This document shows, piece by piece, positions 15,996-59,992 of a stretch of 63,318 bases of DNA. Under the pieces are notes generated by a model that saw nothing but the letters and a program-made list of their open reading frames with translations, was not told where the DNA came from and did no database searches. The stretch spans positions 1 to 63,318 of IMG/VR virus record IMGVR_UViG_3300037993_001113. One strand, written 5' to 3'. The stretch's first letter is position 1; each line of letters begins with the position of its first letter. Both the position numbers and the translations under genes were made by a program. This DNA is from a virus (lineage: Duplodnaviria > Caudoviricetes).

Positions 15996-16037
15996 TTATG
16001 TAGACTCTACAAAGGAACCGCACACAGGACCTCCTTC

Positions 16038-17840
16038 ATGGGCGCACTAACACAGTTGATCCAGATGAAACGCCAGCAGGAAGCGCAGGGCGTGGTGGAT
16101 TCGCTCGCGCCGTCGCAGTTCATCCTGAAGAGTTTCGAGAAAGACCCGTCGAGCGTGGACCCGACGGTGCTGGAACAGGCGTTGAAGAACATTCAGGAAA
16201 TCGGCAACGCCGAAAGTGGGCAGTCCGGTGGCGCAGGCGGAAAAGGTGGCAAGGGTAAAGGCGGGGGCGCGGGCGGTAAGGGCCTCGGCGATCTGTTCGC
16301 CAACATCGCATCGTTGGGTATCGCGGGCGTGCGCAAGCAGGAGCTGTCGCGACGCGAGCGAATGCAGACCGCCGAAACCGACGTGGCCCGCAGCAACCCG
16401 CTGTTGAAGTTGCGAACGCCGGAAGCCCGGCAGGAGATCGCCTTGCGCATGCAGGCGGTCGAAGCCGCTGAACAGCGCAAGCAGCAGCGGATCGCCGATC
16501 AGGAAGCGTACGAAGACCGGGTGAAACGCGCCGATGCCACCGGGGTTACCGGGCGCGACCGCACCGAATACCTGCTCACCGGGAAGTTTCCGACCGGCAC
16601 CGGTGCCACCGGGGGCGCGCCGCGTGTAGTTTACGGCAAGATCAAAGGGCAGGAAGCCGAAGGCGTGCAACCGTTGTCGTTCAACCCGCGCGACCCGAAC
16701 GGCTATATCGACGTCAACGGGCGCACTTACACCAAAGAACAGGTGGAGCTGACCGGGCCGCCCGCGCCCACCGACCGGTTGTTCGGGCGGTCGCTTGAAA
16801 TCGCCAAGATCGTGGAAGGGGAAGGATACAAGCGAGGCACCCCGGAGTACAATCAGCGGTTTGGGCAGATCGCCGCGGCGGATATCGGCACGTCGATTGC
16901 CGCGCAACAGCAACGGATGGGCATCGCCGGGTACGAATCCGGGATCGGCGCCGGGCAGGGGATACCGCCGGATCGCAGTGGGGGACCACCGGCACCGCCT
17001 GCCGCAACCGCTACGCCGTCTGCAGCACCTGCCGCAACCGCCGCCACACCTACCGCCACGCCGCCCGCGAAACCCCGGCTTACTCCGCGCACTGCAACCG
17101 CCACCCCGACACCTGCAGCCGTAAAATCCGACGTTATGACCGACCGGTTCGTGTCCATGTATATCGACTCGGTCTTCGGCAACCGTCCACCCGGTGGCGG
17201 CGCCGCCAACATCGGTGTGATCAAGGGACGCGATGCGCTGCGTAAGCGGCTGGGACTGGACCCGGTGACGTTCAGCGCGGTGATGGCTGGCGACAAGGCC
17301 GAAGTGAAAGCGATGTTCGACACGGTTGAGCGCAAGGTGGCTATCGAGCGCGTCAACAACGTGCTGGCGCTGGTGGGCGACCGCACCATCCAGAACGCGC
17401 AGCGGGTGGTAAATACGGGCAGTCCGTGGCTTACCCGTCCGTGGCGGAAGATCGAACGCGGCGCTACAGGCGACCCGGCGCTTGAAGCGTTCCTGATCGA
17501 TATGAACGAGATGACCCGGCAGTACACCACGCTGACCGCCGGCGGGGCGCTCAGCAAGGCGATGCTGCCTGAAGGCGCTGCCGAAAAGGTGGAAGCGATC
17601 CTCGACCCAAACGCGACCCTGCAGGAAGCCATCGCGCAAGTACAGGAAGTCAAACAGTTTGGCAGGATGGAGCAACAGGGTTTTGCCACCACGCAGCAGC
17701 ATATCGTGCAGAAGATCCTGAGCGACGTTGGCGGGCGTGGTGGTACCACGCATTTCACGGAAGGCAGTGATGCCTGGGACATCCCGGCGGACAAGGTTGA
17801 CGCGTTCAAACGCAAACATCCCAACGCAAGGGCACAGTAA
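16038..17840 (+). CDS. Putative DNA ejection/internal virion protein
   Basis: Coiled-coil, PAT-rich linker, typical podovirus position. Confidence 0.55.
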   Translation: MGALTQLIQMKRQQEAQGVVDSLAPSQFILKSFEKDPSSVDPTVLEQALKNIQEIGNAESGQSGGAGGKGGKGKGGGAGGKGLGDLFANIASLGIAGVRKQELSRRERMQTAETDVARSNPLLKLRTPEARQEIALRMQAVEAAEQRKQQRIADQEAYEDRVKRADATGVTGRDRTEYLLTGKFPTGTGATGGAPRVVYGKIKGQEAEGVQPLSFNPRDPNGYIDVNGRTYTKEQVELTGPPAPTDRLFGRSLEIAKIVEGEGYKRGTPEYNQRFGQIAAADIGTSIAAQQQRMGIAGYESGIGAGQGIPPDRSGGPPAPPAATATPSAAPAATAATPTATPPAKPRLTPRTATATPTPAAVKSDVMTDRFVSMYIDSVFGNRPPGGGAANIGVIKGRDALRKRLGLDPVTFSAVMAGDKAEVKAMFDTVERKVAIERVNNVLALVGDRTIQNAQRVVNTGSPWLTRPWRKIERGATGDPALEAFLIDMNEMTRQYTTLTAGGALSKAMLPEGAAEKVEAILDPNATLQEAIAQVQEVKQFGRMEQQGFATTQQHIVQKILSDVGGRGGTTHFTEGSDAWDIPADKVDAFKRKHPNARAQ

Positions 17841-19117
17841 TGCCGGACGAATTCGACCAGTACAAAGCGCGGTCGGCCGGCAGCGCATCGGGCGACGAAT
17901 TCGACCGGTACCGTGTCGCTGCGGGGCCGCCCAAACCGAAACTCAAACCCAAATCGGAGCAGAAAAGTCCTGCGGCGAAGTTCGGTGGCGCATTCTGGGA
18001 GAACCTGTCCGCTGCATTCAGTCCCGCTAATGTGCTGCGCGGACTGAGCGATATGGCTATCGCTTTTTCCGGCGATCCGGCGGCGTTCAGCGAAGAGAAT
18101 GTAAAACGAAAAGAACAGGTTTACGAAGGTTTGGCGGGCAGCACGGAACAGCCTTTTCGGGAGATCGCGCATGGCGCTCCCGCTGAGGGTGCCGGACATC
18201 TGCTGGGCATAGCGGCGCCTTACGCAGTGGATGAAGTTGTCGGCCGCGGGCTGGGTAAGATTGCGCGCAAAACCCTGCCCGCCGCGGCCCGATCCGTGTA
18301 CGAAGCCGAACTACGCCCCGGTACGAAACCTTCGCTTGCGCAGCGCGCCGAAATGGTTGAGCGCGGGATCGAAGGCAACCTGCCGATAGAAGAGAAGTCG
18401 CTGGGCAAACTGGAAGCCGCAATAAAAGCCAACAAGGACAAGATCGACACACTAACCAAGGACCCGGCGAGTCCGTACGCGGCGCGCACGGTACCGGTAG
18501 CGGACGTATTGTTGCCGGTAGACCAGTTTATTCAGCGTGTCGCCCGCGTGGACAAGGGCGCGGCAAAGGCGCTCATGCAGCGGCGTGCGCAGTGGGCAAG
18601 GTCGCTCGGCGGAGGACCGGATACTACTATCGCGGCGGCGCAGGCGCTCAAGGAAGACCTGTATGCGGCGATTAACAGCGGGTCCTATGCCGGAACCGCT
18701 GAACCGGGCACGCTGGTACAGGGGCGTAAACTTGCGGCGCGCGGAATCAAAAAGGCAATCGAAGACGCGGTACCGGAGCAGCCAATCCGAAAGATCAACC
18801 ACGCGATAGAAACCGACATTCGGCTGAAGGACACGATCAACAGCGCAATCAAACGGCACCCGTCATGGATCAACGACTGGGCGGTGTTCGTATTGGGAGC
18901 CGGGGCGGGAGAGGCGTTGGGCGGGCATATCGGCGGAGGCGCGGCGGCGGTTGGAGCGCTGACCCGGATGGCCGCGCGCAACCCCCGTATTATGAGCCGT
19001 CTGGCTATTGCGCTGGACCGCAGCGGCAACGCGGATCTGGCCGCGGCGCTTAAACCGGCAACGGCGGCGGCACAGGTCGGCGCTGCGGTAAACGGGGGAG
19101 CGACATCAAACTGGTAA
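17840..19117 (+). CDS. Putative DNA ejection/internal virion protein
   Basis: TAATG coupling; N-terminal 'DEFDQY/DEFDRY' repeats; Gly-rich hydrophobic C-terminal segment. Confidence 0.55.
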   Translation: MPDEFDQYKARSAGSASGDEFDRYRVAAGPPKPKLKPKSEQKSPAAKFGGAFWENLSAAFSPANVLRGLSDMAIAFSGDPAAFSEENVKRKEQVYEGLAGSTEQPFREIAHGAPAEGAGHLLGIAAPYAVDEVVGRGLGKIARKTLPAAARSVYEAELRPGTKPSLAQRAEMVERGIEGNLPIEEKSLGKLEAAIKANKDKIDTLTKDPASPYAARTVPVADVLLPVDQFIQRVARVDKGAAKALMQRRAQWARSLGGGPDTTIAAAQALKEDLYAAINSGSYAGTAEPGTLVQGRKLAARGIKKAIEDAVPEQPIRKINHAIETDIRLKDTINSAIKRHPSWINDWAVFVLGAGAGEALGGHIGGGAAAVGALTRMAARNPRIMSRLAIALDRSGNADLAAALKPATAAAQVGAAVNGGATSNW

Positions 19118-19119
19118 CC

Positions 19120-19605: not shown

Positions 19606-19995
19606 TCACTCGATATCGAACGGAACGATCCGCGCGTACACGAACGGTTCGCTCTCCGCATACGCCGCGTCGATCTGTTCGGCACTCACCCCCTGCGCCA
19701 GCAGCCGCTCCTTGCTGAGTGTCTTCCGCGTGGTCCACCCGCTGTAGGAGAACCCGTTGAGCCCGTGGCGCAAACCCTTCAGCCCGTACGCCTCGCAGAT
19801 AGCGCCGAGTTCAGCTTTAATGCGCTCAATCTCTTCTTCGGCTTCGGACTTCTTCGCCGCCTGTCTCACAGCCTTCTTCAACAGCTCGACGGCGCGGGCG
19901 AAGGTGTCGTGATCGTCGATTACCGACGCGATGGGCAGGTTGCTGCCGGATGCGGACAACAAACGCTTCTTTTCTTCTGACATTGCTGCGTTCAC
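19606..19995 (-). CDS. Hypothetical protein (coiled coil)
   Basis: Overlaps the polA stop; last gene of the minus arm. Confidence 0.6.
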   Translation of the reverse strand: MNAAMSEEKKRLLSASGSNLPIASVIDDHDTFARAVELLKKAVRQAAKKSEAEEEIERIKAELGAICEAYGLKGLRHGLNGFSYSGWTTRKTLSKERLLAQGVSAEQIDAAYAESEPFVYARIVPFDIE

Positions 19996-21455
19996 TCCTT
20001 ATCTTTCCAACGTCGTAAAACCTCGCAATCGGCGCGGATGGGCACACGCCACAGGCGCTCGCCGGTGTCGCGGTCGTCCATCACATGCTCGAAGATACCG
20101 ACCATGCAGGCGCCCACCGCGTCGGCGTAGTCTTCGTCCACTTCAGCAACGATTTGATCGTGTATGCTCAACAATGCTTCACAGTGCAGTCCGGTACCGC
20201 GGAACGTGTCGAACGTGTCCTCGGTTTCCGCCATTACCAGCTTTGTCTGTTCCGCATTGCTGGCGGTAATCGCATGATTCTGCGCCTCGCGCAGTCCTTC
20301 GCTTACCTTATACGGCAGGCTGGAGCGCACCTGCGGGATGTAGCGGGGACGGCCCCACGGGTCCCATACGAATCCGTAGCGTCGAGCCCGGTAGTGTTCC
20401 TGAGCGAAGTACGCGGCAACCTCGGGGTGTTCCCGGTACCACTGCTGTATAAACCGGTCGCACCATTCCTCCGTAAGCCAGTCCGGCGGGGATATTCCCG
20501 CCGCCCAGTAGTCGCCAACCAGTTGCGACAGCAATCCCTTTTTGGTGACACCGTTCTGGATACCGAAGTTGGTCCGTTTGCTTGGCATCCGGTGCAGGTA
20601 CTTGTCCACTTTAGCCGGATCCTCAATGTGGAACGTCTGCATCGCGGTGTGCATGTGCGGATCGAAGAACGGGTCTTCATTGAACCGCGCGATCAGCACC
20701 GGGTCATTGGCTAAATGCACCATGTCGCGGAACTCCATGCCGGAGAAGTCAACCGACACAAGGCGCGTGCCTGGGGAGGCAACGAACGCCGCGCGGATGC
20801 GGGCGCCCAGCGAACTGCGGATAGGTATCTGCTGCAGGTTCGGCTTGCGGCTGCTGAGCCTTCCTGTGATCGCCCGTGTGGTGGTGAATGTCGTGTGCAA
20901 ACGGTTTGTAGACTCTACATGGGGAAGTTCGCACAGCGGGCAGCAGGGGCCTGCCGGGTGTAACCGTGCCATTGCGGGCAGGGCGTCGCAGAACGCACTG
21001 CGCAGTTTCGCGCGTTCCCGGTAAGCAATCACCAATGGCACCACCGGGTGCTGATCGCGTACCAGATCGAGGTTCTTCCGTCCGGTCGATACCTTGCCGC
21101 CGCCGGTAGACTTAAGCTTTGTATTGCGGCCAACGCCCAGCAGATCGAACAGCAGCTCGCGGATCTGTTCGGCGCTGGATGCGTTGATGCCGGCCGATCC
21201 TTCTTCTTCTTCAATTGCTGCGGCGGATGCGCTGAACCGGTCCAGAGCGAACGGCGGAATGTAGGACGCTATCTGCTTTTGCAGGTCCGCCATTTCGGCG
21301 GCGAACTGCACCGACAGTTCCTGCAGGTATGGCACGTCAACCGCGATCCCGACACGCGACATCCGGTTGAGCGTTGGCAGGATGGATAAGTCCAAACGCC
21401 GGACGTTTTCAAGATCCGGCTGTCCGGGCAGCGTTATGCCGTTATAGAGAGGCAC
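19992..21455 (-). CDS. polA: DNA polymerase family A, polymerase domain only
   Basis: TGRLSSRKPNLQQIP, motif A DFSGMEFR, motif B KRTNFG, motif C IHD. Confidence 0.92.
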   Translation of the reverse strand: MPLYNGITLPGQPDLENVRRLDLSILPTLNRMSRVGIAVDVPYLQELSVQFAAEMADLQKQIASYIPPFALDRFSASAAAIEEEEGSAGINASSAEQIRELLFDLLGVGRNTKLKSTGGGKVSTGRKNLDLVRDQHPVVPLVIAYRERAKLRSAFCDALPAMARLHPAGPCCPLCELPHVESTNRLHTTFTTTRAITGRLSSRKPNLQQIPIRSSLGARIRAAFVASPGTRLVSVDFSGMEFRDMVHLANDPVLIARFNEDPFFDPHMHTAMQTFHIEDPAKVDKYLHRMPSKRTNFGIQNGVTKKGLLSQLVGDYWAAGISPPDWLTEEWCDRFIQQWYREHPEVAAYFAQEHYRARRYGFVWDPWGRPRYIPQVRSSLPYKVSEGLREAQNHAITASNAEQTKLVMAETEDTFDTFRGTGLHCEALLSIHDQIVAEVDEDYADAVGACMVGIFEHVMDDRDTGERLWRVPIRADCEVLRRWKDKE

Positions 21456-21458
21456 GGG

Positions 21459-21665
21459 TCAGTCTTCGTCGTCGCCTTCTTCGTCGTTGCCTTCCCGGTC
21501 GTCTTCATCCGGTTCGTCGTCTTCATCCGGCGCGTCGTCCGCTTCGATCATGCAGTCTTCGCTGCAATAGGGCTTGCCGGAATCGCCGATCCACGGATCG
21601 CCATCGAATTCCGCTTCGCATTCGGCGCAGGTTGTAATTTCGTTCTCGTCAGGCGTGGAACTCAT
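21459..21665 (-). CDS. Small zinc-ribbon protein with acidic tail
   Basis: SD AAGGAG; CAEC...YCSEDC then a D/E-rich tail. Confidence 0.65.
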   Translation of the reverse strand: MSSTPDENEITTCAECEAEFDGDPWIGDSGKPYCSEDCMIEADDAPDEDDEPDEDDREGNDEEGDDED

Positions 21666-23076
21666 CTCTGTCTCCTTCGTGTATTCGGAACGCATCGCCG
21701 CGCCGGCGCGCCAGTTCAACCGCGACCCGCCCCGTCCAGTCCGCGTCGCCCACGGCGTAGTTTACAGCCTCTTCCATGGTGCAGTTGGCTATCCCCGGCA
21801 CGGGGTAGCCCCCGCATCTTGCCTCCACATGCGACACCATCCATTCGTTCAGCGGGTCCTGCCAGAACGCGTTCAGCCTGGGTTCGTCGTTGGCGCCCCA
21901 CGGGTTGTATTCGCCGTCAGGCGCGGTGTTGTCCAGCAGACGTTTGAGCAGCGACTCCAGATCGCTTTTACGTACCTCATCCGCCAGCGGTTTGCCGGTC
22001 TTCTTATGAAATCTGCTGCTGCGCCACTGCAGATCCAGCACCGCGACCCGATACGCTTCGAGCATCCAGTCCTGCAGGGCGCGGATCGACGCCGGCCATA
22101 CGGTTTCCTGATAACTGGTCATGGTGTGGCGGAACAACCGGTAGACCAGCGGCTTAAGGCCCTGCGGCAGGTTGCCAAGGTGGAATGCTTCCTGCATGGT
22201 GTCGCCTGAGGGCAGAATGTCGCATCCCAGCTTATGCAACACTTCCATATCGTAGGAGGCGTTGTGGAAGATCGTACGGTATAGAGACAGACCGGCAAAC
22301 AAATGACGCAGTGTGCGTTTGTCTACAGCTCGTATGAGAACACCCTGTCTGGGTTGCCATGACACCTGCACCGACCACGGATGGCCCGCATGGCTTTCCG
22401 TATCGATGGCCAGCACTGATGCGTTCTCCATCCCACGCAGACCTTCAGTATCCGTTATCAGTTTGTAGTCGACCGGTTCAGGCGCCGGGCCCCCGATGAA
22501 CGCTTCGTAACCTCTGCGGTGCATGTCCAAAGTGCCGCTCAGCCCCTGCCAGTCGTCCATACACACCTGCATCCAGCGGGACTCGTGCAGGCCGATAGCG
22601 GGATGGTACATTGGCACCAGCCAGCCTTCCCACCCGAACAGCGTGCCGACCTTGCCAGTGTGTTGTGGGATGCCGTGGTGAAGCTCCAGTCGGATACCCG
22701 GCACCAGACTGCAGGCGCTGCTGCCGCACAACACGATCACTTCCGGTTGCGTTCGCGCGATCTCTTCCGCTACGTGGTGCCGGGCGCACGCGGCAATGGT
22801 CTTGTCGTCCGGCGCTTTGTTGGCAGCGTGTCCGCATAACACGGTGTTGCAGACGCGGACCTGCGAGCGGTCGAGCCCGGCCAGCGGCAGGTAAAGCTCG
22901 TCCAGTTCCTGGCCGGTTTTCCCGCAAGCAACCCTGCCCTGCCGGTTCTCGTCCTGCCCCGGACGCTCCATGACGATCAGCACGGATGACGGTTGCGGTC
23001 CGTCCCCGCCTATCGCATGGAGCGATTCGTTGCCCGCGTTAGGGCAGTCCGGGCAGCGCTGGCACCAGGCAGGCAT
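21649..23076 (-). CDS. Uracil-DNA glycosylase (family-4-like) fused to a PolA-type 3'-5' exonuclease
   Basis: CxxCxxC, ERPGQDE, NTVLC, YHPA (UDG); IDTES, HNASYD, YAVGDA (ExoI-III). Confidence 0.88.
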   Translation of the reverse strand: MPAWCQRCPDCPNAGNESLHAIGGDGPQPSSVLIVMERPGQDENRQGRVACGKTGQELDELYLPLAGLDRSQVRVCNTVLCGHAANKAPDDKTIAACARHHVAEEIARTQPEVIVLCGSSACSLVPGIRLELHHGIPQHTGKVGTLFGWEGWLVPMYHPAIGLHESRWMQVCMDDWQGLSGTLDMHRRGYEAFIGGPAPEPVDYKLITDTEGLRGMENASVLAIDTESHAGHPWSVQVSWQPRQGVLIRAVDKRTLRHLFAGLSLYRTIFHNASYDMEVLHKLGCDILPSGDTMQEAFHLGNLPQGLKPLVYRLFRHTMTSYQETVWPASIRALQDWMLEAYRVAVLDLQWRSSRFHKKTGKPLADEVRKSDLESLLKRLLDNTAPDGEYNPWGANDEPRLNAFWQDPLNEWMVSHVEARCGGYPVPGIANCTMEEAVNYAVGDADWTGRVAVELARRRGDAFRIHEGDRDEFHA

Positions 23077-25313: not shown

Positions 25314-25492
25314 TACACGATCCTCCACAACAAAACGGCGATTACCGCCAGCAGCAGGATTATTACGCCGCAGGCCCATACGAACATAGTACGCGCAAAG
25401 CAGAACCTGCGGAACCAGTAGCCAATAGTGTCGGTATTTATTTCTTCCAGTGTCCTCAGCCTGCCTGTTTTTCCATTGGTATATTTAGTCAC
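25313..25492 (-). CDS. Small membrane protein
   Basis: GTGA overlap; C-terminal TM helix. Confidence 0.5.
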   Translation of the reverse strand: MTKYTNGKTGRLRTLEEINTDTIGYWFRRFCFARTMFVWACGVIILLLAVIAVLLWRIV

Positions 25493-29182: not shown

Positions 29183-29187
29183 GGCGT

Positions 29188-30863: not shown

Positions 30864-32477
30864 TTAAGTGTTTTTCGGTGTCGCCACCGGTGTTACCCGC
30901 GGCGGCGCGGGCGGAACGGACTGAACGGTAAAAATACGGAATCCGGGCGGTGTGTACGACCTGCCGTCCGGTCCGCCAAGCTGCCTGACCGCGTTGTCCA
31001 GAACGAACAGTTCGGAGCGGTCGGTTTCGCTGCGCACCGCGCGCCCGCGCATTTGCACAAGTTTCTGCGCGGCATAGTGCAAACGGTATCCCGGAATCTG
31101 CGCACAGCGTTCTTTAATTACCCGCTGCGTTTCGTTGGGGAACGGGAATTTAAGGCAGATCTGGACTTCACACTGGGTGTCGGGGAAGTCGAATCCCTCT
31201 TCAACACTGGGTGTGACAAGGATAGTTCCCGGACCTGCGGACCGGAATCGGTCCAGACAATCCGGCAGTTCGCTTCCTGCTGTATTCCTAATAAATCTTC
31301 CAGCGTGACGCGAATATCGCAGGGCTCGTTCGGAGCGAGCATAACTGACAGTATGGACGATTGTCTTCCGGTCTGCACGGCTGTCGATAATCGCGTCCAT
31401 CGCTTCGATGACTTTTTTGTAGTCTTCATCGGTAGATTTCCATGTGAGCTTTACGGTGGGCAGGTGGTACACCGGCGCGTTGGACGGCGGAAACACGCTC
31501 GGCCACGCGCGGTAATTATACGGTTGGTCCTGCGACATGAGCAGGCGTAAAGTGAATTCGTTGAGCGAGGCGCTCATCATGAGCACACGGGGGATGCCGG
31601 AAAACAGTGAGCGCGTGTAACCGTTGAGCCGGACAGGTTCGAAGGTGACGTGCCCGGTGCGCTCGTCCGCCTGCCAGATCCAGTTCGGAGTCATCTTCAG
31701 AATGCGTCTGCACCGGTCTGCCAGATCCACGTCGTCTTCGTCCGTGCTGTTACCCAGTGCTTCCAGTTTGTCCTTCGCCCAGACACGCCACAGGTGTGCG
31801 TCTTCTTCCGGTCCGGGGTACATTACGCCCGAGGCAGCGAACGCTTTATATTTGCCTGTTTCACCGGCATGCAGCCGCACCGATACGAATTCCGAAAGTT
31901 GCTGACCGGCATTGTGTGCTTCGTCGCAGATCAGCAGGCCGATAGGATCGTACTTTTCCAGCGCTTCGCTGTTGTGTTTGCGCGCGTGCAGCCAGTACGC
32001 GTAGTTGGTGACCGCCAGCGGTGCGAGGTTGGCAGCTTCCACGGCGCGTGTATATGGACAGCCATCCGTTTTGCTGCGGCTGCATTCGGCGTCGTACCCG
32101 GCTTCGCAGTTGCCGTATGCACTGCAACGGTAGTTTGCACGTCCCCGAATGTCCGCGACCAGCCCGCCGAAGTCGCCGAGGATCTGCTGTTGCAACGCCT
32201 TCGTGGCGACAACGTATACCGCGCGAACGCCAAGCAGTCTGGCCAGCGCTACGGCGATCAGCGTTTTGCCAGCGCCGGTTGCCAGGCACGCGGCGTTTGT
32301 AGACTCTACACATTCGTTAAGGAGCCAGTCCAGCGCCTGCCGCTGGGGTTGCCGGAACGATGTGAACTTAGCCGGGAGGCCAAGGGACTGCGGGTCGCTG
32401 GCGACCCCCAACGGGTTTTCGGCGTGCTGTGTCATCTCAGCAATACAATACTTATCAGATTGGTTATCGGTTGTCAA
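30864..32477 (-). CDS. SF2 DinG/XPD-like helicase
   Basis: ATGAGKT, Cys cluster, DEAH, SAS, EGFDFP, QMRGRAVR. Confidence 0.88.
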   Translation of the reverse strand: MTTDNQSDKYCIAEMTQHAENPLGVASDPQSLGLPAKFTSFRQPQRQALDWLLNECVESTNAACLATGAGKTLIAVALARLLGVRAVYVVATKALQQQILGDFGGLVADIRGRANYRCSAYGNCEAGYDAECSRSKTDGCPYTRAVEAANLAPLAVTNYAYWLHARKHNSEALEKYDPIGLLICDEAHNAGQQLSEFVSVRLHAGETGKYKAFAASGVMYPGPEEDAHLWRVWAKDKLEALGNSTDEDDVDLADRCRRILKMTPNWIWQADERTGHVTFEPVRLNGYTRSLFSGIPRVLMMSASLNEFTLRLLMSQDQPYNYRAWPSVFPPSNAPVYHLPTVKLTWKSTDEDYKKVIEAMDAIIDSRADRKTIVHTVSYARSERALRYSRHAGRFIRNTAGSELPDCLDRFRSAGPGTILVTPSVEEGFDFPDTQCEVQICLKFPFPNETQRVIKERCAQIPGYRLHYAAQKLVQMRGRAVRSETDRSELFVLDNAVRQLGGPDGRSYTPPGFRIFTVQSVPPAPPRVTPVATPKNT

Positions 32478-34797: not shown

Positions 34798-36078
34798 TTA
34801 CGCTTTGCCGCTTTGCCGCTTTGCCGCTTTCTTCGCAGGCTTCGCTGTTGTGTGCCGCGCCTGCGCTTCCTCCACCAGCACGGCAATCCGGTTCCAGTGC
34901 GCGATAACATCCTTGCCGGCTGCGTCGCCGCGCGTCCACGCGGTCTTCAGCACGGCGCAGAACGACCGCATGATATCCGGGTAAGCGGCTGAACACAGCG
35001 AGTCCAGCAGGCAGATAAGATCGGCAACGGTACGGGTGACCGCATGCGGACCTTTGCCGGTGTCGCGGTCGCGGGTGGCCTTAAGTTCACGGGCAGCTTC
35101 GGCGATCTGCGCGCGGGTGGGCACAACGGGCCGGTCAGGCGCTTCGGCCTCCGCGCGTCCGGTTTTTTCCTTTGCGCGTTCAGCCTTTTTCGTTGCGCGT
35201 TCAGCCTTTTCCTTTTCCCGCCGCGCCGCGCTTTCCCGGCGCAGCTGCGCCATCCACTCTTTCCGTTGCGCCGGGGTACGCTCCGCGGCAGGTACCGCCT
35301 GGGTAGTTTTGCCTGTCCCGGCCGGCTTACCGGATACTGTTTGCCGCGCATTAGCGCCCGCTGGCGTGTTCGCGCCAGGCTTCCCCGTGGTTTGGTCCGG
35401 GGACGGCTGCGCAACCGCTTCCCGCTCGGCTTTCTGCACAGCCAGTTCGACTACCGCGTCCGCCTGCGCCGGTTCGACGTGGGTGAGCGTGTAGAATGCG
35501 GCATCCGCGCCCATCCTGCCGTCCGCAACCAGTGCCAGCAGACTGTCGTACACGTCCTGCGCCATACCCTCCGGTTTGTGCAGCAGTTTGTCGCACTGGC
35601 TGACGGTTGCTCTGGACACCCCGCAGTACTGCGCGACCTCGCGGGTGCCGGTCCAGCCGTGGCGCTCGCGCACCGCCCGGAACAAATGCGCCATCTGGAC
35701 GGCGGTGTAACCCTGCCGGTCTAAGTTGGCGCGAACCGCCAGCCGCAGCGGGTCGCCGCCGGTTGCTCCGTCCACCACGCACTCCAGCGGAAACGGCGTG
35801 CCGTCGCCTTCGATCGTCAGCGCGGCAGTCAGCCTGCGCCGCCCGTCGAGCACCCGATGCTGCGGGTCTACGATCAGCGGGACAAGCTGACCTTCGCTCA
35901 GCAGCGAACGCTTAAGCGCTTCGAGCCGGCGGGCTTCGTTTGCGGCCGGCGGGCCGGGCCTTGCTTCCGCTGTTTCCGGCAGCAGGCCGATTTCGGACGG
36001 CGCGAGCATTATTGTCGCTCTTGGCGCGGGCAGCGGCGGGTATGTTTCCCCGCCTAGTACGTATTCGACTCTGGGCAT
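34798..36078 (-). CDS. parB: ParB/Spo0J-family CTPase with HTH
   Basis: SLLSEGQLVPLIV, VLDGRRRL, ANLDR, HTH REVAQYCGVSRATVSQ; SD GGAG. Confidence 0.82.
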   Translation of the reverse strand: MPRVEYVLGGETYPPLPAPRATIMLAPSEIGLLPETAEARPGPPAANEARRLEALKRSLLSEGQLVPLIVDPQHRVLDGRRRLTAALTIEGDGTPFPLECVVDGATGGDPLRLAVRANLDRQGYTAVQMAHLFRAVRERHGWTGTREVAQYCGVSRATVSQCDKLLHKPEGMAQDVYDSLLALVADGRMGADAAFYTLTHVEPAQADAVVELAVQKAEREAVAQPSPDQTTGKPGANTPAGANARQTVSGKPAGTGKTTQAVPAAERTPAQRKEWMAQLRRESAARREKEKAERATKKAERAKEKTGRAEAEAPDRPVVPTRAQIAEAARELKATRDRDTGKGPHAVTRTVADLICLLDSLCSAAYPDIMRSFCAVLKTAWTRGDAAGKDVIAHWNRIAVLVEEAQARHTTAKPAKKAAKRQSGKA

Positions 36079-36382
36079 CGGGGGTTTCTCCTGGCAGTTC
36101 GGACGGCGTTGTTCCCGCCGGTTTGTGCAATGCCGCCACCTGCGCAAGGTCCCAGCCGAGGTAGGCGGCCAGCCGTTCGGCAAACCGCATCGACGGCCGG
36201 GCCGCGCCGTGCAGCACCCGCGACAGGTAATCGGGCACTACCTGCAGCGATTCGGCCATGGCGGCGATGTTGTAGGGACGCCACGGTCCCTTGGGGGGTT
36301 GTCCGGTGCGCGACGGCGCGCGGCGCGGCACCAGCGGGGATACCGGAGGGAGCGCGGCGGCGGAATGTACGCGTTTGCTCAT
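35912..36382 (-). CDS. XRE/Cro-like HTH regulator
   Basis: IAAMAESLQVVPDYLSRVLHGAARPSMRFAERLAAYLG. Confidence 0.72.
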   Translation of the reverse strand: MSKRVHSAAALPPVSPLVPRRAPSRTGQPPKGPWRPYNIAAMAESLQVVPDYLSRVLHGAARPSMRFAERLAAYLGWDLAQVAALHKPAGTTPSELPGETPDAQSRIRTRRGNIPAAARAKSDNNARAVRNRPAAGNSGSKARPAGRKRSPPARSA

Positions 36383-36418
36383 ACACGTTCGGTCCCCGGC
36401 GGCGCGTGCGAACCATTG

Positions 36419-36448: not shown

Positions 36449-36486
36449 AACGGCCCGCATGACAACGCCTGCCGGGTACGCTACGA

Positions 36487-36752: not shown

Positions 36753-36776
36753 CTTGTTTTGTTGTATCCTGTTGTT

Positions 36777-37601
36777 ATGAAAGCACCTTATCGAAGCGTG
36801 AAGAAAAGATCGGACCTGTTTTACGTCGGTCAGCGCCTGGGTAAGGACAGCATGCTGCAGGTCAGCGGGTCGGTCGATCCGCTGTCATGGCGTCAGGTAA
36901 TCTGCCTGTGCGACTGCGGAAACACCGTTGTGCTGCCCTATCAGCACGCTTACGCGGGAAGGTTTTCCTGCGGCTGCAGACGCCGCATACGGCAGGATTG
37001 TGCCGATCATGCCGGGTTACGGGTGCACAACGGCGCCGGAAATAACGGCGAAGGACGCACGCTGACGGTATTGTGCCGCGATGAAAAAACCCAGTTGTGG
37101 ATTTACCTGTGCGAGTGCTGCGCCGCAACTTTCGATGTGCCGCGCGGAATGGAGCGCGGTGTGCGCGGCAGCCTGCGCGGCATCGCCGGCGAAACCTGCC
37201 CTAACTGGATTCCGTTTTACCCGAACGGCGGATGCGGTCTGAGCGATGCATACTGGGAACGTTACGGGCGGCCCGTGGAAGCCGATTACGGACTGGCCAT
37301 GCACAACCCGCCGGGGCATAACAGCGCCGATAAAGACTATACCTGGGCGGCGCCGTTTTACAAACCGGAACGGGTGAAGCGCGGCAGTGGCGGCGAAGTG
37401 CTCGGGGTATACGGGCTGCCGACCGAGGGGACGCCGCCGGGGCCGCGGCCAACCAGCGTATGGGCGCACCCGGAACTGCCGGATCTGCCTGCAGCAGTCT
37501 TTGCAACGCCGGTACCCGAAGATATGGACGGAATGGCTGCAGTGCTGGCGGAAATAGACTGGATCGCGCCGCCCGTGCCGGAGCGAAGCGGACGGATGTA
37601 G
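36777..37601 (+). CDS. Cys-rich protein resembling the N-terminal repeats of AP2/HNH endonucleases
   Basis: CLCDCGN..SCGC and CECC motifs; only + strand gene in the - arm; no clear HNH core. Confidence 0.55.
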   Translation: MKAPYRSVKKRSDLFYVGQRLGKDSMLQVSGSVDPLSWRQVICLCDCGNTVVLPYQHAYAGRFSCGCRRRIRQDCADHAGLRVHNGAGNNGEGRTLTVLCRDEKTQLWIYLCECCAATFDVPRGMERGVRGSLRGIAGETCPNWIPFYPNGGCGLSDAYWERYGRPVEADYGLAMHNPPGHNSADKDYTWAAPFYKPERVKRGSGGEVLGVYGLPTEGTPPGPRPTSVWAHPELPDLPAAVFATPVPEDMDGMAAVLAEIDWIAPPVPERSGRM

Positions 37602-37657
37602 TCTCTACAAACGCAAACGGCGGGTGAGGGGTTGGCCTTTCCACCGCATCGCCCGGA

Positions 37658-46888: not shown

Positions 46889-49201
46889 GTGTACAGCCGT
46901 CGTATCGTCGCGCGCAATCTGGACCGGTACCTTGCTTCCCTGAAACCGGATGCGCTCCCGACGGCGCAAAAGCACCTCGCCCCGGTCAGCCGTATCGAAT
47001 TCGCCCGCGCCGTCGCTCACTTCGACACGCTGGTCGAACGCGACAACGACACCGGACGGCTGATCCCGGTGCGCAACGTCACCCCGGACGGCAGGCAGGT
47101 GTTCGACTCGCAGGGCCGGGTGCTGCTGCAATGGCAGGACACGCTGACACCGGAGGAAGCGCAATGGCTCAAATATCAGCGTATCCTGTGCGCGCTGGAC
47201 TTCTGGTACTGGGTGGAGCGTGCAGTATGGATCAAAGACACAGACAACGAAACGGTGCGGATGACCCTGTGGCGGTCGCAGGAGATCTTTCTGGAGATCG
47301 TCGCGGACATGGAGGATCAGGAGATCGCGATCTTCCTGATTATCCTGAAGGCAAGGCAGCTCGGGATCTCACGGATTATCACGTTGATCCTCTTACACAG
47401 GGTCGTTTTCGACTCGAATATCAACGCCTATTTGGCCAGTTCGACGGACAAAAAAACGCTGAAGCTGTTCAAGCTGATTTCCTTCGTGCTTGTCAGAATG
47501 CCGTTCTGGATGCAGCCCGGAAGTTCGCAGCCGGGCAAACTAGGCAAGGTAGACCAGGCCGGTAAACTATTGGAGTTTTTCAATGGCTCAGCTATCACGA
47601 TGGAACACGGTCAGCAGACCACCGGCATGGCCAGAGGCGATAGTCCTAACGTTGCTCACCTCAGCGAACTCGCCGAATTCGATGATATGGACTCACTCGT
47701 GGATTCAGCACTGCTGCGCGGCATGCACCCTTCGCCACGAAGTTTTCTGGCTCTCGAAGGCACCGCTGCCGGTATTCACAACTCCTGGCATGACCACTGG
47801 GAAGCCGCCAAGGAGCAGTGGCCGCAGCGCCGCGGCCGCCTCCGCCCGTTGTTCCTCCCCTGGTTCGTAGGCGGGCTCTACCCCAAACCCGTAGACCTGC
47901 TGTCACGTCCGGTGCCCGCCGATTACTCCACATCCATGGCCCCATGGGCGCTGACCCATGCGCGTATGGCCGAAGAGTCCGTACGGCAGTCCGACTACCT
48001 GTCCAAAGCCCTCGGCTCCAACTGGTTCATGCCGCTGGAGCAGATCTGGTACTACGAATGCGAACGCGCCGACGCGATCCGTAAGAACACGCTGAACAAG
48101 TTCCTGTCCGAAATGCCCGCGACCGACGATGAAGCATTCAACAGTACGAATGTGACTGTCTTTGACGTTGACACAATCAACTTTTACACCGCCAATGTGC
48201 GCACGCAGCCCGTATGGGGTGTGTTCGGCATTCGCGGACCGTCCGAATTCGTCCCTCCGCGCATCCAGCCGCATGACATCCTTGTAGACTCTACAAAGCC
48301 GCCCATCGATATTCTGGCCGATGCCGGCGGCGGGGTGAAAATACCGTTTCAGCTGGTGCCGCTGCAGTTTCGCGGATGGGATTACGAAGGCGACAGCAAA
48401 AAGGGTTCGGTGGACAAGATTTACGTATTCCAACCGCCCATGGACGGTTTCGAATACTACTTCGGGGTAGACACCGGCGACGGCATCGACAAGGACCGGA
48501 CGGTTATCGAAGGCTTGCGCAAATACTCGCTGGAAGGTCCCACCGCGCAGGTGCTCGAATTCGCCAGCGGGCACATGGGCGCCCTCGATGTGTGGCCGCT
48601 GCTGCTGGCGCTCGGTACATGGTACAGCGTTCCCGACCGCCGCGGCAACCGCCGTCAGCCCTGTATGGCTATCGAATGCCGCGGCAAGGGTGATATGCCG
48701 CAGCACGTGCTGCGCCTGATGAACTGGCATAATTTCCATTTGTGGAACGACAACCGGATCGATCACAAACAACTGGACCTGTCGCGCGCGCAGAAGTTGG
48801 GGGTGTTCACTAATTTCTACTTTCGCGCGGCCATGATCGATCACATCGTCACTTCGCTGCGCAACGGCGAAATAGAAATCCATTCGCCGTTCTTCGTGAA
48901 GGAAATGCGGTCGCTCGAAGGCGACGAATACGAACAGCAGCTGCGCGCCGGTCACGGCGGACACGACGACCGGATTATGGCGCTGGGGTTTGCCTTAACG
49001 TCGTTCAGCAAGTTCGACGCGGAATACTGGCGGGCGACCAAGGTAATGGCTTACTCGGGGCGCAACCCGGCGATGGCCGCATACGGTACGACCGGACTGC
49101 TGCCCGGAACCGAGGGAAGCGCATTGCAGGTTCAGCGCGGCGGACAGCGGCAGTACGCGTCCTGGGTTTACGGGGCGCAGTGCGATACGTCGGGGCTGTA
49201 G
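46889..49201 (+). CDS. terL: Terminase large subunit
   Basis: LKARQLGIS, HLSELAEF, GVDTGDG, HDDRIMALGFA; start inferred at GTG 46889. Confidence 0.92.
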   Translation: MYSRRIVARNLDRYLASLKPDALPTAQKHLAPVSRIEFARAVAHFDTLVERDNDTGRLIPVRNVTPDGRQVFDSQGRVLLQWQDTLTPEEAQWLKYQRILCALDFWYWVERAVWIKDTDNETVRMTLWRSQEIFLEIVADMEDQEIAIFLIILKARQLGISRIITLILLHRVVFDSNINAYLASSTDKKTLKLFKLISFVLVRMPFWMQPGSSQPGKLGKVDQAGKLLEFFNGSAITMEHGQQTTGMARGDSPNVAHLSELAEFDDMDSLVDSALLRGMHPSPRSFLALEGTAAGIHNSWHDHWEAAKEQWPQRRGRLRPLFLPWFVGGLYPKPVDLLSRPVPADYSTSMAPWALTHARMAEESVRQSDYLSKALGSNWFMPLEQIWYYECERADAIRKNTLNKFLSEMPATDDEAFNSTNVTVFDVDTINFYTANVRTQPVWGVFGIRGPSEFVPPRIQPHDILVDSTKPPIDILADAGGGVKIPFQLVPLQFRGWDYEGDSKKGSVDKIYVFQPPMDGFEYYFGVDTGDGIDKDRTVIEGLRKYSLEGPTAQVLEFASGHMGALDVWPLLLALGTWYSVPDRRGNRRQPCMAIECRGKGDMPQHVLRLMNWHNFHLWNDNRIDHKQLDLSRAQKLGVFTNFYFRAAMIDHIVTSLRNGEIEIHSPFFVKEMRSLEGDEYEQQLRAGHGGHDDRIMALGFALTSFSKFDAEYWRATKVMAYSGRNPAMAAYGTTGLLPGTEGSALQVQRGGQRQYASWVYGAQCDTSGL

Positions 49202-53815: not shown

Positions 53816-54001
53816 ATGCCGTCATCACAGGTAATGCACGAATACAAGGCCGGGCGGCTGCATTCCGGCAGCAAACACGGGCCGAAGGTTAAGAACCGTA
53901 AGTAGGCCGTCGCGATCATGCTGTCGGAAAAGCGTAAGGAGAAGTCGCAGGGCGGCAGTTACCATGGAAAACGGAAACGGTCGCGGTCCAAAAGCAGATA
54001 G
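53816..54001 (+). pseudogene. DUF6496-like small basic protein with in-frame TAG at 53903-53905
   Basis: VMHEYKAGRLHSGSKHGPKVKNRK*AVAIMLSE. Confidence 0.7.
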
Positions 54002-54239
54002 CACCGGCAGCACCGGCAGCCTGCTGAACGGACACTCCCTGTCCCGTCTGGCCGGCGCGGTACCTTCCGCGAAGCTCGTGCAGGAAGTCCGCCTGCCCGC
54101 CGCCCGTATGGCCGATGTGCTCGAAACCATCCACCAGCTCGGGCACGCGGGAAAGTTGTCGATCAACTTCGCGCACGGCAAAGCCGTGGACATGGTGTGG
54201 TCGATCACGCGCGAGGCGAAACCGCATGGCGACCTGTAG
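53964..54239 (+). CDS. Hypothetical protein
   Basis: Fits the operon. Confidence 0.55.
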   Translation: MENGNGRGPKADSTGSTGSLLNGHSLSRLAGAVPSAKLVQEVRLPAARMADVLETIHQLGHAGKLSINFAHGKAVDMVWSITREAKPHGDL

Positions 54240-54259
54240 GTTTGTAGAGTTTACAAACA

Positions 54260-58868: not shown

Positions 58869-58890
58869 CGCAGGAGCGCAGCGGGTATCC

Positions 58891-59967
58891 ATGCCCACCA
58901 ATCCATATCCGCTGCTGACCTTCCAGCAGCTCTACAAGGAGCTGACCGGGGAGATATCGCCGCTGCCCGATCCGATGGCGGCGCGCATTATCAACCGCGC
59001 ATGGAAGCGCATCAACGACTGGCGGATGTGGTCGTGGCAGGTAATAGCCAATGCGCAGTTATTTGTGCCCGCTGTAATCTCGGTCGGCACATGTAGTGTT
59101 GTTTTTAACAGCACAATGGTGGTTATGTCTCCGTCGGCAACGGCGGCTCTAAACACGGTGGCTTTCGGCAATCCGCCGCTGGCGTCGCCGATCCTCGGTG
59201 TAGGTTATCAGATCAGGCTGGGCAGCAGCGCAACCGCTCTGCAGTCGCCTGTCGGACCGAATTACACTATCACCGGCTGGGACGGCAACGGCAATATGAC
59301 CATCGACGCTCCTTACGGCCAGGCGTCCGGCACCGGCCTGCAATACCAGGTGCTCAAAGCCTTCTACGCCGCGCCGTTTCTGCCGGTTACTTCCACCGGT
59401 ACGGACGGTCAGTTTGCCCGGTATCTGTCGATTACCAACCTGCTGGACGGTTATGCGATCACCGGCCGCCAGTTGTATTTTTCGCAGGAGGAGCTGAACC
59501 GGATCGACCCGCAGCGCGGCGGGCAGGGCGATGCGTACATCCTGGCGTACCTGCAACATAACTCGCGGGGACAACCGGTGTATGAAATGTATCCGAACCC
59601 GGTGAATACCGCAAACACCTACCAGGCAAACTACGTAAGCAAAGGGCCGCTGCTGACAATGACCGCGCAGCTGCCGCAGGTCAGCTACGCTCTCGACGAC
59701 GCGGTGACGTTTCAGGCCAAAGTGTTCGCGGGCCAGTGGGCGATGGCGAACGTTACCCGATTTAAGGATCTGCAGGGCACCAACTGGGTGCAGTACTGCG
59801 CGGAGATGGAACGGGAACGAAAGGTAACATTGCTGAGCTGTTGCAGGGAGGATGACGAGATCATGCCGTCGCCGAAGCCGTTCGTGTTCAACGGCGGGTT
59901 CAGCTTCCCGCTGGGCGGTGAATTCCTGCAGTCGCACGATATCAGCAGTATTCTGCCTCCGGTATAA
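58891..59967 (+). CDS. Head-tail adaptor-like protein
   Basis: IINRAW.RI..W.W N-helix, YPNP motif. Confidence 0.55.
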   Translation: MPTNPYPLLTFQQLYKELTGEISPLPDPMAARIINRAWKRINDWRMWSWQVIANAQLFVPAVISVGTCSVVFNSTMVVMSPSATAALNTVAFGNPPLASPILGVGYQIRLGSSATALQSPVGPNYTITGWDGNGNMTIDAPYGQASGTGLQYQVLKAFYAAPFLPVTSTGTDGQFARYLSITNLLDGYAITGRQLYFSQEELNRIDPQRGGQGDAYILAYLQHNSRGQPVYEMYPNPVNTANTYQANYVSKGPLLTMTAQLPQVSYALDDAVTFQAKVFAGQWAMANVTRFKDLQGTNWVQYCAEMERERKVTLLSCCREDDEIMPSPKPFVFNGGFSFPLGGEFLQSHDISSILPPV

Positions 59968-59992
59968 TGTAGACTCTACAAAGGAGATCTGA

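Follow-up and report, generated by a model that had tools for sequence, protein, structure and literature searches.

A dispersed 13-bp palindrome in a phage genome is a predicted docking site for the phage's own ParB-like protein

Why does one 13-bp palindrome recur along a phage genome, inside genes as well as between them? The window, by which we mean the whole 63,318-nucleotide stretch analysed here, is an entire IMG/VR virus record (CheckV completeness 100%); the genome originates from peat soil. All five exact copies of TGTAGACTCTACA listed in the initial annotation, and both of its variants, were found again (Table 1), the variants being the only other matches to TGTAGACTCTACA with up to two mismatches. 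These seven sites, three intragenic and four at gene boundaries, compare with 0.70 expected, and every exact copy has C as its centre base on the plus strand. The abundance is indeed far above chance, as first supposed, since none of 100 dinucleotide-preserving shuffles contained even one copy against the five observed. Among TGTA-Nx-TACA arrangements with spacers of 0-11, spacer 5 alone is enriched (eight copies vs 0-2 for each of the others). The sequence TGTATCAGATACA may be a chance match; it is the sole candidate inside a 19-kb gap otherwise devoid of sites.

Table 1. Palindrome sites and associated genes in the window
Feature	Position	Strand	Context
TGTAGACTCTACA, exact site	15999..16011		Intergenic: 3 nt past gene 15393-15995, 26 nt ahead of gene 16038-17840
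TGTAGACTCTACA, exact site	20907..20919		Within DNA polymerase A gene (polA, 19992-21455, minus); peptide HVESTN
TGTAGACTCTACA, exact site	32298..32310		Within helicase gene (30864-32477, minus); peptide CVESTN
TGTAGTCTCTACA, variant	37597..37609		Contributes the TAG that ends gene X (36777-37601)
TGTAGACTCTACA, exact site	48283..48295		Within terL (46793/46889-49201, plus); peptide LVDSTK
TGTAGAGTTTACA, variant	54243..54255		3 nt past gene 53964-54239
TGTAGACTCTACA, exact site	59968..59980		Abuts stop of gene 58891-59967; 12 nt ahead of gene 59993-60181
TGTATCAGATACA	9694..9706		Match to outer TGTA-N5-TACA only
ParB/Noc/KorB-like protein, 426 aa	34798..36078	minus	Proposed motif reader
Xre-type HTH protein (Pfam HTH_31)	35912..36385	minus	Directly upstream of ParB-like gene, ends overlap
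Gene X, Cys-rich (CxCxCG...SCGC) protein	36777..37601	plus	Divergent from HTH/ParB-like operon

The three intragenic copies force VEST or VDST peptides into their proteins, as the initial annotation had pointed out, and encode three of the four V[DE]ST tetrapeptides in the window, by means of the codons GTA, TCT and ACA, which account for 18%, 6% and 15%, respectively, of usage within their own amino acids. The enrichment survives the codon-aware null that had been named as a check: synonymous-codon shuffles yield a mean of 0.000 copies, and the observed three were reached in 0/200. The motif spells V[DE]ST in related phages too (10/10 in G439, 9/10 in G440 and 4/5 in G015), these peptides arising because only the frame needing neither a stop (TAG) nor Cys is used. 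Selection at the DNA level acts on the motif, TGTAGACTCTACA. The further claim that the sites are fairly evenly spaced has weak support: the coefficient of variation (CV) of the gaps in the window is 0.46 vs a random mean of 0.81, a fraction of 0.051 of simulations being as low, and it falls below the random mean in 8/8 genomes, each of them marginal when taken singly (0.025-0.30) and with syntenic sites common to them.

Enrichment in relatives, another of the checks put forward, was also found. The family form of the motif is TGTAG-N3-CTACA (TGTAGA-C-TCTACA in the window), enriched at this spacing alone, and it occurs in 6-23 partly syntenic copies per genome. Sequence comparison indicates conservation with turnover, in which the polA site is family-wide and the helicase and terL sites are new in the window lineage. 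Of the eight other records combining this part of polA with an Arg-type ParB-like protein (see below), seven have the polA site in synteny (the exception is G015). Its HVEST codons read CAT GTA GAG TCT ACA in Arg-type genomes vs CAC GTA GAG TCT ACG in G023. The helicase site is lineage-specific, relatives having other residues at this place, and the terL site lies in a variable stretch where relatives have INKSL, VNHDL, IDSSL and others. The 54243 site has syntenic counterparts behind a homologous gene in G001, G009 and G002, and the 59968 site has one in G001. Across the family 69% of sites are intragenic, and many lie within operons, 3-30 nt ahead of start codons, a placement that would fit a simple roadblock repressor just as well. 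The 3' end of gene X bears a site in 5/5 genomes checked, and so does, in 4/5, the divergent stretch preceding the HTH/ParB-like operon; the window lacks this site of the four relatives, with no half-site in 36300-36900. Gene X, flanked by motif sites in relatives, was considered as the motif reader and rejected, as it is absent from the motif-bearing G015 and G440.

We propose, with a probability of roughly 0.7, that an orphan ParB/Noc/KorB-like protein encoded by the phage itself has the palindrome as its cognate DNA site, to which it is predicted to bind. This reading is the most likely, given that across related phages the two are found together and vary in step. In the protein, an N-terminal ParB/Srx domain bearing a DGRRRLTA box is followed by a helix-turn-helix (HTH), whose recognition helix reads SRATVSQC, by a disordered linker and by a C-terminus made of helices; the N-terminus has a conserved peptide, MPRVETV. 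Its AF2 model (pLDDT 74.5; residues 20-223 confident) is matched by Foldseek to Myxococcus ParB-CTPgammaS (7bnr, E 1.7e-8), to B. subtilis ParB (6sdk), Noc (7ol9/7nfu) and Caulobacter ParB (6t1f), and to KorB (8qa9, TM 0.66 on target) and the operator-bound KorB DNA-binding domain (1r71, TM 0.61), so that the modelled protein shares the fold of ParB, Noc and KorB. At the sequence level, the match to a PHROG ParB family reaches only E 5.8e-7, the best PDB sequence match is Noc 7ol9 (E 0.0039), and a Pfam search at E 1e-3 returned no match for the window protein; its database homologues carry PF02195. The counterpart of the ENLQR box reads RANLDR, with Ala in place of Glu, a change that may alter hydrolysis or even the handling of nucleotide. 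A ParA partner was looked for and not found, which makes classical partition unlikely, and inspection of the N-terminus by eye revealed no LG[KR]GL-type ParA-binding motif.

The site and the gene travel together. Each of the 11 records in which an HMM detects the ParB-like gene has the core GTAG-N3-CTAC, at 2-23 copies (0.36-0.92 expected from base composition); copies number 0, 1, 0, 0, 0 and 0 in six related complete genomes that lack the gene (0.66-0.85 expected). G017 keeps the polA module and a homologue of the HTH protein (E 1e-11), and has neither the ParB-like gene nor any site. Searching with the ParB-like alignment as seed brought up three new contigs, all of them site-rich (7 in 27 kb, 20 and 22), and five of nine new short metagenome contigs with the gene have 1-3 sites 0.4-2 kb upstream, the other four spanning just 1.5-2.2 kb. 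The distribution of the motif cuts across structural-gene phylogeny, in which G015, G439 and G440 are distant but site-rich, and G008 is close and without T..A sites. Since the ParB-like and Xre HTH genes are adjacent throughout, with only G004 and G017 separating the two candidates, co-occurrence alone cannot tell one reader from the other.

Where the recognition helix of the ParB-like protein reads S-R-A (nine records), T..A flanks 84 of the 96 core sites and C..G flanks none. With S-V-A (G023), C..G flanks 10/12 sites and T..A none; with S-T-A (G004), C..G flanks both of only two sites; and with S-P-A (L272), the outer bases of five sites are a mixture of T and C. The alignments show the palindrome's outermost base pair changing together with the ParB-like specificity residue, through a small number of independent changes, about three events (Arg vs Val, Thr and Pro), the non-Arg proteins lying among Arg-type ones in the ParB-like tree. 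Two Arg-bearing genomes, G011 and G003, have degenerate sites, with T..A in 1/3 and 5/10 core sites. The covarying residue aligns with the R of Spo0J GKSRPHIAN and the Q of Noc GKGQSTIAN (ParB R173/Noc Q173). Position 173 is one of four experimentally defined ParB/Noc specificity residues and reads the outermost base, with Q173 variants favouring A at outermost position 1 (PMC7383237). Co-occurrence, covariation and the ParB/Noc/KorB-fold model together support the earlier suggestion of phage ParB sites in the manner of KorB.

The reader might instead be the small Xre-type HTH repressor, with scattered operators blocking transcription in the fashion of L5 stoperators and the ParB-like protein a bystander or acting elsewhere. 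We regard this as unlikely, although the HTH gene adjoins the ParB-like gene in every site-bearing record covering the region and has sites in its own upstream region in 4/5 genomes, a 13-bp palindrome with half-site centres ~9 bp apart fits any HTH dimer, and many sites occupy short spacers of co-directional genes. In the HTH protein, the helix presumed to read DNA (G[RK][IV]L) has a basic residue in 9/9 T..A-type records and Asn in G023. However, the G004 protein keeps Arg at this helix position, yet the sites there are C..G-flanked; the homologue in G017 is present without any site whatever; and the sites are palindromic and mostly intragenic, unlike L5 stoperators, which are asymmetric and oriented with transcription. 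The clean covariation is with the ParB-like residue, at a specificity position known from experiment (PMC7383237). The HTH protein may otherwise act as a co-regulator.

Three further explanations were considered. A target of cutting, nicking or modification, whether as T5/phiKMV-like interruptions or as methylation or restriction at GA(C/G)TC, is improbable. Its appeal is that the motif centre GASTC is a subset of GANTC, that type IIS and nicking enzymes with GAGTC sites are known, that the window's exact copies share a centre base on one strand, and that the phage encodes methyltransferase-like proteins and a protein with an ERCC4 nuclease domain. In relatives, however, the centre base is mixed and tracks the gene strand, mostly with GAG (Glu) on the coding strand; in G002 and G011 the arms are retained and the GASTC centre is not; most relatives that have sites lack the two methyltransferases of the window; and the published phage nick consensus sequences are, to our knowledge, unrelated to the palindrome. 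Still less probable is service to a host protein, either a nucleoid organiser (MatP, Noc, SlmA), as the initial annotation had also envisaged, or a host regulator exploited by the phage. Shared hosts could explain why the motif cuts across structural-gene phylogeny, but a host factor predicts neither the covariation with a phage residue nor the co-occurrence with a phage gene, and the suggested k-mer check of candidate host chromosomes revealed no enrichment, the motif occurring in 7/401 genomes, one copy each, of the phylum of a MAG with a related capsid gene, which may not be the host's. Least probable of all is an RNA or single-stranded DNA hairpin with a 5-bp stem and 3-nt loop, acting as a processing site or a promoter like the N4 early promoters. 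In the family form two inverted 5-bp arms flank a 3-nt spacer, and several copies lie just upstream of ribosome-binding sites, but compensatory stem variants were not seen, the window having no further sites within two mismatches, and sites lie on both sides of transcription switch points. Arm variants in relatives, TGTAG..GTACA (G011) and ..TCTCCA (G003), break pairing, which indicates that sequence is conserved rather than pairing.

For the ParB-like protein, a mechanism can be envisaged by analogy with its relatives. A dimer would place one HTH domain in each of two successive major grooves, where the Arg that opens each recognition helix would read the outer T(G). As in ParB, Noc and KorB, the N-terminal domains would bind nucleotide (CTP) and close into a clamp, which would leave the palindrome along flanking DNA, so that 6-23 roughly evenly spread loading sites could coat the whole 60-kb genome. 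The need for spread would explain why selection wrote sites into coding sequence. The foremost purpose would be genome-wide transcription control, for example temperate-phage silencing, with autoregulation of the HTH/ParB-like operon, and the next in rank compaction or positioning of phage or prophage DNA. Binding, nucleotide dependence, sliding and these roles are all predictions from the sites and the fold, as are loading and silencing at the sites.

Among the closest known arrangements is that of KorB, whose OB operators on the IncP plasmid RK2 are 13-bp palindromes in many copies over a ~60-kb replicon, some far from promoters, with arms TTTAG vs TGTAG in the phage. Both pair a ParB-fold protein having an HTH with a dispersed 13-bp palindrome, the phage protein by predicted binding. 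According to PMC11790492, KorB on binding CTP forms a clamp that slides away from distal sites and brings about long-range silencing, with assistance from KorA, a small HTH protein encoded in the same control region; the phage likewise has a small HTH gene directly upstream of the ParB-like gene. Unlike RK2, the replicon is a phage, an IncC/ParA partner was not found, the sites are largely inside genes, the similarity to KorB is detectable by fold alone, no second operator type was identified for the HTH protein, and its contact with the ParB-like protein is only putative. In Bacillus, the orphan ParB paralogue Noc works without ParA, nucleating at dispersed palindromic NBS by use of a CTP switch (PMC8429893). 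The phage protein resembles it in that no ParA was found and in its covarying position, equivalent to residue 173. Noc, however, is a chromosomal protein whose amphipathic N-terminal helix anchors DNA at the membrane, where the phage protein has the MPRVETV peptide, and the NBS is 16 bp vs 13 bp for the phage site.

Among phages, the 13-bp stoperators of mycobacteriophage L5, of which Brown et al. in 1997 reportedly described some tens, often in short intergenic spacers, with gp71 silencing the prophage, are similarly repeated over the genome. They serve a plain HTH repressor, unlike the present sites, which covary with a ParB-fold protein. In N15, IR sites are said, from work by Ravin and Lane in 1999 and Ravin et al. 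in 2008, to be scattered over the phage genome and to affect late genes. N15 SopB is, as here, a phage-encoded ParB-family protein with several separate inverted repeats, IR1-4 (PMC7205306), four in number vs 7-23 here and in relatives. N15 also encodes SopA, where no ParA was found in the present phage, and its prophage is established as a plasmid. Canonical ParABS differs in its ParA, for which no counterpart was found here, in the LG[KR]GL-type motif not seen by eye in the phage N-terminus, and in its sites, clustered at one locus rather than genome-spread. It shares with the phage system the protein fold, the HTH and the Arg at the 173-equivalent position, and parS starts with TGT, as the phage site does.

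The five exact copies of the palindrome TGTAGACTCTACA proposed in the initial annotation are all present in the complete 63,318-bp virus record, and copies are found in 0 of 100 dinucleotide-preserving shuffles. Allowing up to two mismatches adds only the two variants that had also been named, giving seven sites against 0.70 expected. As was claimed, the three intragenic copies encode VEST or VDST peptides, namely HVESTN in polA, CVESTN in the helicase and LVDSTK in terL, while the remaining four sites lie at gene boundaries, one of them providing the TAG stop of the Cys-rich gene X. The motif encodes three of the four V[DE]ST tetrapeptides of the window, though the three codons are rare, and a codon-aware null is likewise rejected, the observed count being reached by none of 200 synonymous shuffles. 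The centre base is C in all five exact copies and mixed in relatives and within genomes; its identity in the window is explained by Glu/Asp codon choice on the coding strand together with gene strand. Gaps between window sites range from 4.9 to 19.3 kb, and the related contigs G439 and G440 have one site per ~3 kb. The description of the sites as fairly evenly spaced survives as a trend, with gaps more even than random in eight of eight genomes, but each genome is individually marginal. A 14-mer scan of viral contigs was uninformative (at least 120 single matches), and a literature search on the motif strings found nothing related.

Coordinates of the palindrome sites and other features of the window
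Feature	Position	Strand	Remarks
Region of very large ORFs without family match	1-14927		first 14 kb; G+C 0.56-0.58 (0.59-0.63 elsewhere)
ORF	8855-9568		no homologue in any relative examined
1785-aa ORF	9570-14927		no homologue in any relative examined
Site, exact	15999		
Gene	19606-19983		
DNA polymerase A	19992-23076		two ORFs, 68-aa ORF between
ORF	19992-21455		polymerase domain
Site, exact	20907		in polA
ORF	21649-23076		uracil-DNA-glycosylase-like domain and 3'-5' exonuclease
Methyltransf_24/CmcI-like methyltransferase	25489-26202		common to relatives G002 and G011 only
Sak4-like AAA_24 protein	27765-28766		
Tandem array	29191-29386		12-nt unit, 16.3 copies; within gene 28562-29383
Site, exact	32298		in helicase
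GPPESGKT protein	32474-33784		
ParB-like protein	34798-36078	-	426 aa
N-terminal peptide of ParB-like protein	36057-36078	-	M-P/A-R-V-E-T/Y-V
Xre HTH protein	35912-36385	-	
Sigma-70-like promoter match	36515-36487	-	
Inverted repeat	36598-36641/36709-36752		44-nt arms, 84% complementary, 67 nt apart, GC-rich centre
Gene X	36777-37601	+	Cys-rich
Site, variant	37597		
ORF, 112 aa	37658-37996		matches C-terminal third of integrase family only
Tandem array	38031-38271		9-nt unit CGAGCAGTC, 26.8 copies
Second recombinase match	38965-39285		region 38582-39705; internal TGA
C5-cytosine methylase-like ORF, 218 aa	41290-41946		N-terminal part of family only; in no relative
Site, exact	48283		in terL
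Gene followed by syntenic site	53964-54239		
Site, variant	54243		
Gene followed by syntenic site	58891-59967		
Site, exact	59968		
Two tandem small basic paralogues	59993-60372		62 and 64 aa; GG-x-MIGGVRSPMA motif; just downstream of site 59968
First small basic virion-module protein	59993-60181		

Searches with terL and the capsid protein, and afterwards with the ParB-like protein, supplied the relatives, whose whole records were compared; the sequencing runs comprised 24 DNA runs, all as contigs (20 peat, 3 wetland and 1 soil metagenome). A terL nucleotide search against cultured-phage records gave no match. The form shared by the family, TGTAG-N3-CTACA, consists of two inverted 5-bp arms separated by 3 bp, and when TGTA-Nx-TACA was tried with spacers of 0-11, enrichment was seen at spacer 5 only. 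TGTA-N5-TACA is present 8 times in the window, 8 in G001, 7 in G003, 10 in G002, 11 each in G011 and G015, 20 in G439 and 22 in G440, with 6 copies in a 34-kb fragment (G009) and 7 in a 27-kb fragment (G438). A strict A-S-T centre is kept in the window, G015, G439 and G440; G002 has a variable, GC-rich centre, and G011 is relaxed at the inner base of the stem.

The motif is thus enriched in relatives, a comparison that the initial annotation had called for, and in part at syntenic places, with sites in polA and, in several genomes, after homologues of the two genes so marked in the table. Among the 13 site-bearing records, 91 of the 131 sites counted when one stem mismatch is allowed are intragenic (69%, against ~91% coding DNA), indicating that intergenic spacers are favoured and that the sites are not confined to them. 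Intragenic copies are nearly always read as x-V-x-x-T; of the other two frames, one holds TAG and one requires Cys. This frame usage suggests a signal at the DNA level, accommodated in proteins at the positions of least harm. The polA site is old: conservation extends to its peptide, CELPHVESTWRLH, and seven of the eight other records of the Arg type (defined by the ParB-like protein, below) having that stretch carry the site, G015 reading HDAPT instead. The helicase and terL sites lie in variable stretches with other residues in relatives, and are new in the window's lineage, V-E/D-S-T there having been imposed by the motif.

Comparison of gene content between site-bearing and site-free genomes narrowed the choice of protein reading the motif. 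Gene X is flanked by sites in five genomes, yet is absent from the site-rich G015 and G440; gene 19606-19983 is found in site-free genomes too, and the first small basic virion-module protein also in G008 and G004, records without T..A sites (that is, sites with T and A as the outermost base pair flanking the core GTAG-N3-CTAC). The candidates left are the two products of one operon, the Xre HTH protein and the ParB-like protein. A locus search with the single ParB-like protein found no relative and an alignment was required; seeding with the ParB-like alignment gave three additional contigs, all three site-rich. The metagenome scan with a closer alignment required S-R-A in its pattern and covers Arg types only. 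Site-free relatives yielded no other palindrome of comparable significance. The decisive comparative result on the reader is a rescan of the supposedly site-free genomes with the core GTAG-N3-CTAC, which uncovered a C..G variant in four of them: G023 has 12 core sites, 10 with C..G flanks, G004 has two, both C..G, and the fragments G008 and G010 have two and one C..G sites, respectively. The core motif is present in 11 of 11 records with the ParB-like gene, compared with 0-1 copies in the six complete relatives lacking it by HMM (G005, G006, G007, G017, G021 and G024, with 0, 1, 0, 0, 0 and 0 core sites).

The outer base pair varies with one residue of the recognition helix of the ParB-like protein. 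In nine records with helix S-R-A (the Arg type), 84 of 96 core sites are T..A and none C..G; with S-V-A (G023) none of the 12 is T..A; S-T-A is the helix of G004, with its two C..G sites; and with S-P-A (L272) the outer bases are mixed T/C over five sites. The C..G-flanked form is CGTAGACTCTACG. At the polA site HVEST is spelled CAT GTA GAG TCT ACA in Arg-type genomes and CAC GTA GAG TCT ACG in G023, synonymous changes located exactly at the outer motif positions. The helix Arg aligns with R of Spo0J GKSRPHIAN and Q of Noc GKGQSTIAN, and is position 173 of the ParB/Noc specificity residues; experimentally, this specificity is set by four residues including 173, and Q173 variants favour A at the outermost site position (PMC7383237). 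The two non-Arg proteins branch among those of the Arg type in the ParB-like protein tree, within a clade that is poorly resolved, so that the residue label needs two changes.

By its modelled N-domain fold and its central HTH the ParB-like protein is assigned to the ParB/Noc/KorB family. The AF2 model (pLDDT 74.5) is confident over residues 20-223, beyond which come a disordered linker and a helical C-terminus, and matches Myxococcus ParB-CTPγS, B. subtilis ParB, Noc, Caulobacter ParB and RK2 KorB; the N-terminal ParB/Srx fold matches N-domain plus DNA-binding-domain structures at E 1.7e-8 to 4e-6, and Foldseek matches the DNA-bound DNA-binding domains of ParB, Noc and KorB (6s6h, 6y93, 1r71). 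A Pfam scan of the window protein gave no match at 1e-3, but PF02195 is found on database homologues (36-42% identity), the PHROG ParB family matches the window protein at E 5.8e-7, and phmmer matches Noc and Spo0J across N-domain and HTH (E ~0.004-0.006). The HTH TREVAQYCGVSRATVSQCDKLL aligns with those of ParB and Noc. The first nucleotide box, DGRRRLTA, aligns to GERRwrA of Noc/Spo0J; the second (ENLQR-type) is RANLDR in the window, where Ala replaces a Glu that relatives mostly keep (HENxxR, YENMHR or IENIQR), and nucleotide handling is therefore uncertain. The N-terminal peptide is near-invariant in six clade-A ParB-like proteins, the remaining N-terminus being disordered, and may be a short partner-binding motif.

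The best-supported reading of these sequence comparisons is that the sites and the ParB-like protein would form a phage counterpart of KorB and Noc, in which an orphan ParB-fold protein loads at many dispersed palindromes across the genome; spacing slightly more even than random would suit a need for whole-genome cover. For the protein at its sites we infer binding, nucleotide dependence, sliding and a biological role. Repeats of N15 SopB are scattered over the genome, with an effect on late genes. Four separate repeats are bound by N15 SopB (PMC7205306). Mobile elements and phages are reported to carry orphan ParB proteins commonly (PMC12704722). KorB is established to close into a clamp in a CTP-dependent manner, to slide away from distal sites and, together with the small HTH protein KorA, to silence at long range (PMC11790492). 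The case at hand stands apart in three respects: it lacks ParA, its site density is high and its sites are embedded in coding sequence. No ParA-type KGGxGK[ST] Walker A is found in window ORFs of at least 100 aa, where P-loop-compatible Walker A motifs occur only in the Sak4-like and GPPESGKT proteins; unlike classical ParABS/SopABC, no adjacent ParA is found and the sites are not clustered at one locus. In KorB/KorA-type regulation a small HTH partner binds and locks the clamp; a candidate for such a partner is the Xre HTH protein, whose gene is found directly upstream of the ParB-like gene in all records spanning the locus. A predicted complex of ParB-like residues 18-225 with Xre HTH residues 12-100 gave a score of 0.00 and no verdict either way. 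L5-type stoperators are asymmetric and oriented with transcription, whereas the phage site is palindromic with asymmetry at the centre base only. Phage ParBs that activate thymidine dioxygenase have no DNA-binding domain (bioRxiv 10.1101/2025.08.14.668559), an architecture different from that of the HTH-bearing ParB-like protein, and a Pfam scan of the window finds no thymidine dioxygenase. We found no paper on DNA sites or roles of phage orphan ParB-fold proteins, though the supplements of PMC12704722, outside our coverage, may list family members or relevant sites.

The Xre HTH protein, sharing the operon, could itself be the reader. This fits less well, as the basic residue of its putative recognition helix is retained in G004 despite the C..G sites, and G017 has an HTH homologue with neither ParB-like gene nor sites. 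The initial annotation had left the choice between sites for the phage ParB and sites for a host nucleoid-organising protein. Co-occurrence, outer-base covariation and the ParB fold favour the former; on the host side, where sites of the matS or NBS kind would be present in many chromosomal copies, the motif is found in 7 of 401 candidate-phylum genomes, one copy each, the phylum being that of a Terriglobales MAG with a related capsid gene and possibly not the host's. Less probably, the palindrome could serve as a hairpin element, against which there are no compensatory stem variants, or as a nick or modification site, for which the window does encode methyltransferases; most site-bearing relatives lack these, and the GASTC centre is missing from G002 and G011.

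Returning to the phage ParB-like protein as reader, we can extend the proposal, with a probability of roughly three in ten, to a peat-soil phage family with an orphan, ParA-less, nucleotide-gated clamp of ParB/KorB type, loaded at 6-23 sites deliberately placed in coding sequence round the genome, so that one protein would cover an entire phage or prophage of 60 kb and switch it. Divergence of residue and outer base (Arg with T..A, Val/Thr with C..G, Pro relaxed) at all sites at once would create 'immunity' or incompatibility groups, a natural replay of the laboratory-mapped ParB-to-Noc specificity switch. The protein-site pairing is ready-made, with up to 23 sites per genome and a clear binding prediction, and its natural specificity variants differ by one helix residue and one base pair. 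It offers a directly testable case of ParB-family specificity evolution in which a protein and dozens of its sites have to change together, and illustrates how essential genes accommodate a scattered DNA signal, in one frame, as V-E/D-S-T peptides and with synonymous outer-base changes. If true, KorB-like long-range control, known on plasmids, would also operate in phages of a little-studied soil phylum.

In 8 of 10 genomes searched the ParB-like locus has tyrosine recombinase genes nearby, making a temperate or plasmid-like lifestyle plausible, although the window copies appear truncated or interrupted. Homologues of the 112-aa integrase-like ORF are in open frames of 336-551 aa in relatives; the damaged-looking window genes are either pseudogenes or assembly errors. 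The HTH/ParB-like operon and gene X diverge from an AT-rich region that contains the long inverted repeat; the repeat may serve as an origin, an attachment site or a second operator. In the capsid-bearing MAGs G035-G037, TGTA-N5-TACA is several-fold rarer than the reversed pattern (5 vs 16, 1 vs 15 and 4 vs 37), which may be mere TA depletion. One 61-kb contig binned with an actinobacterial MAG has the size of a phage genome and was probably placed there in error. In G002 the polA site is inside one called 926-aa ORF, and this genome is rich in GACC-rich peptide repeats similar to those of the tandem arrays. The region of very large ORFs, probably a swapped host-recognition module, coincides with a 19-kb stretch without a good site. 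The tandem small basic paralogues are conserved in the virion module family-wide.
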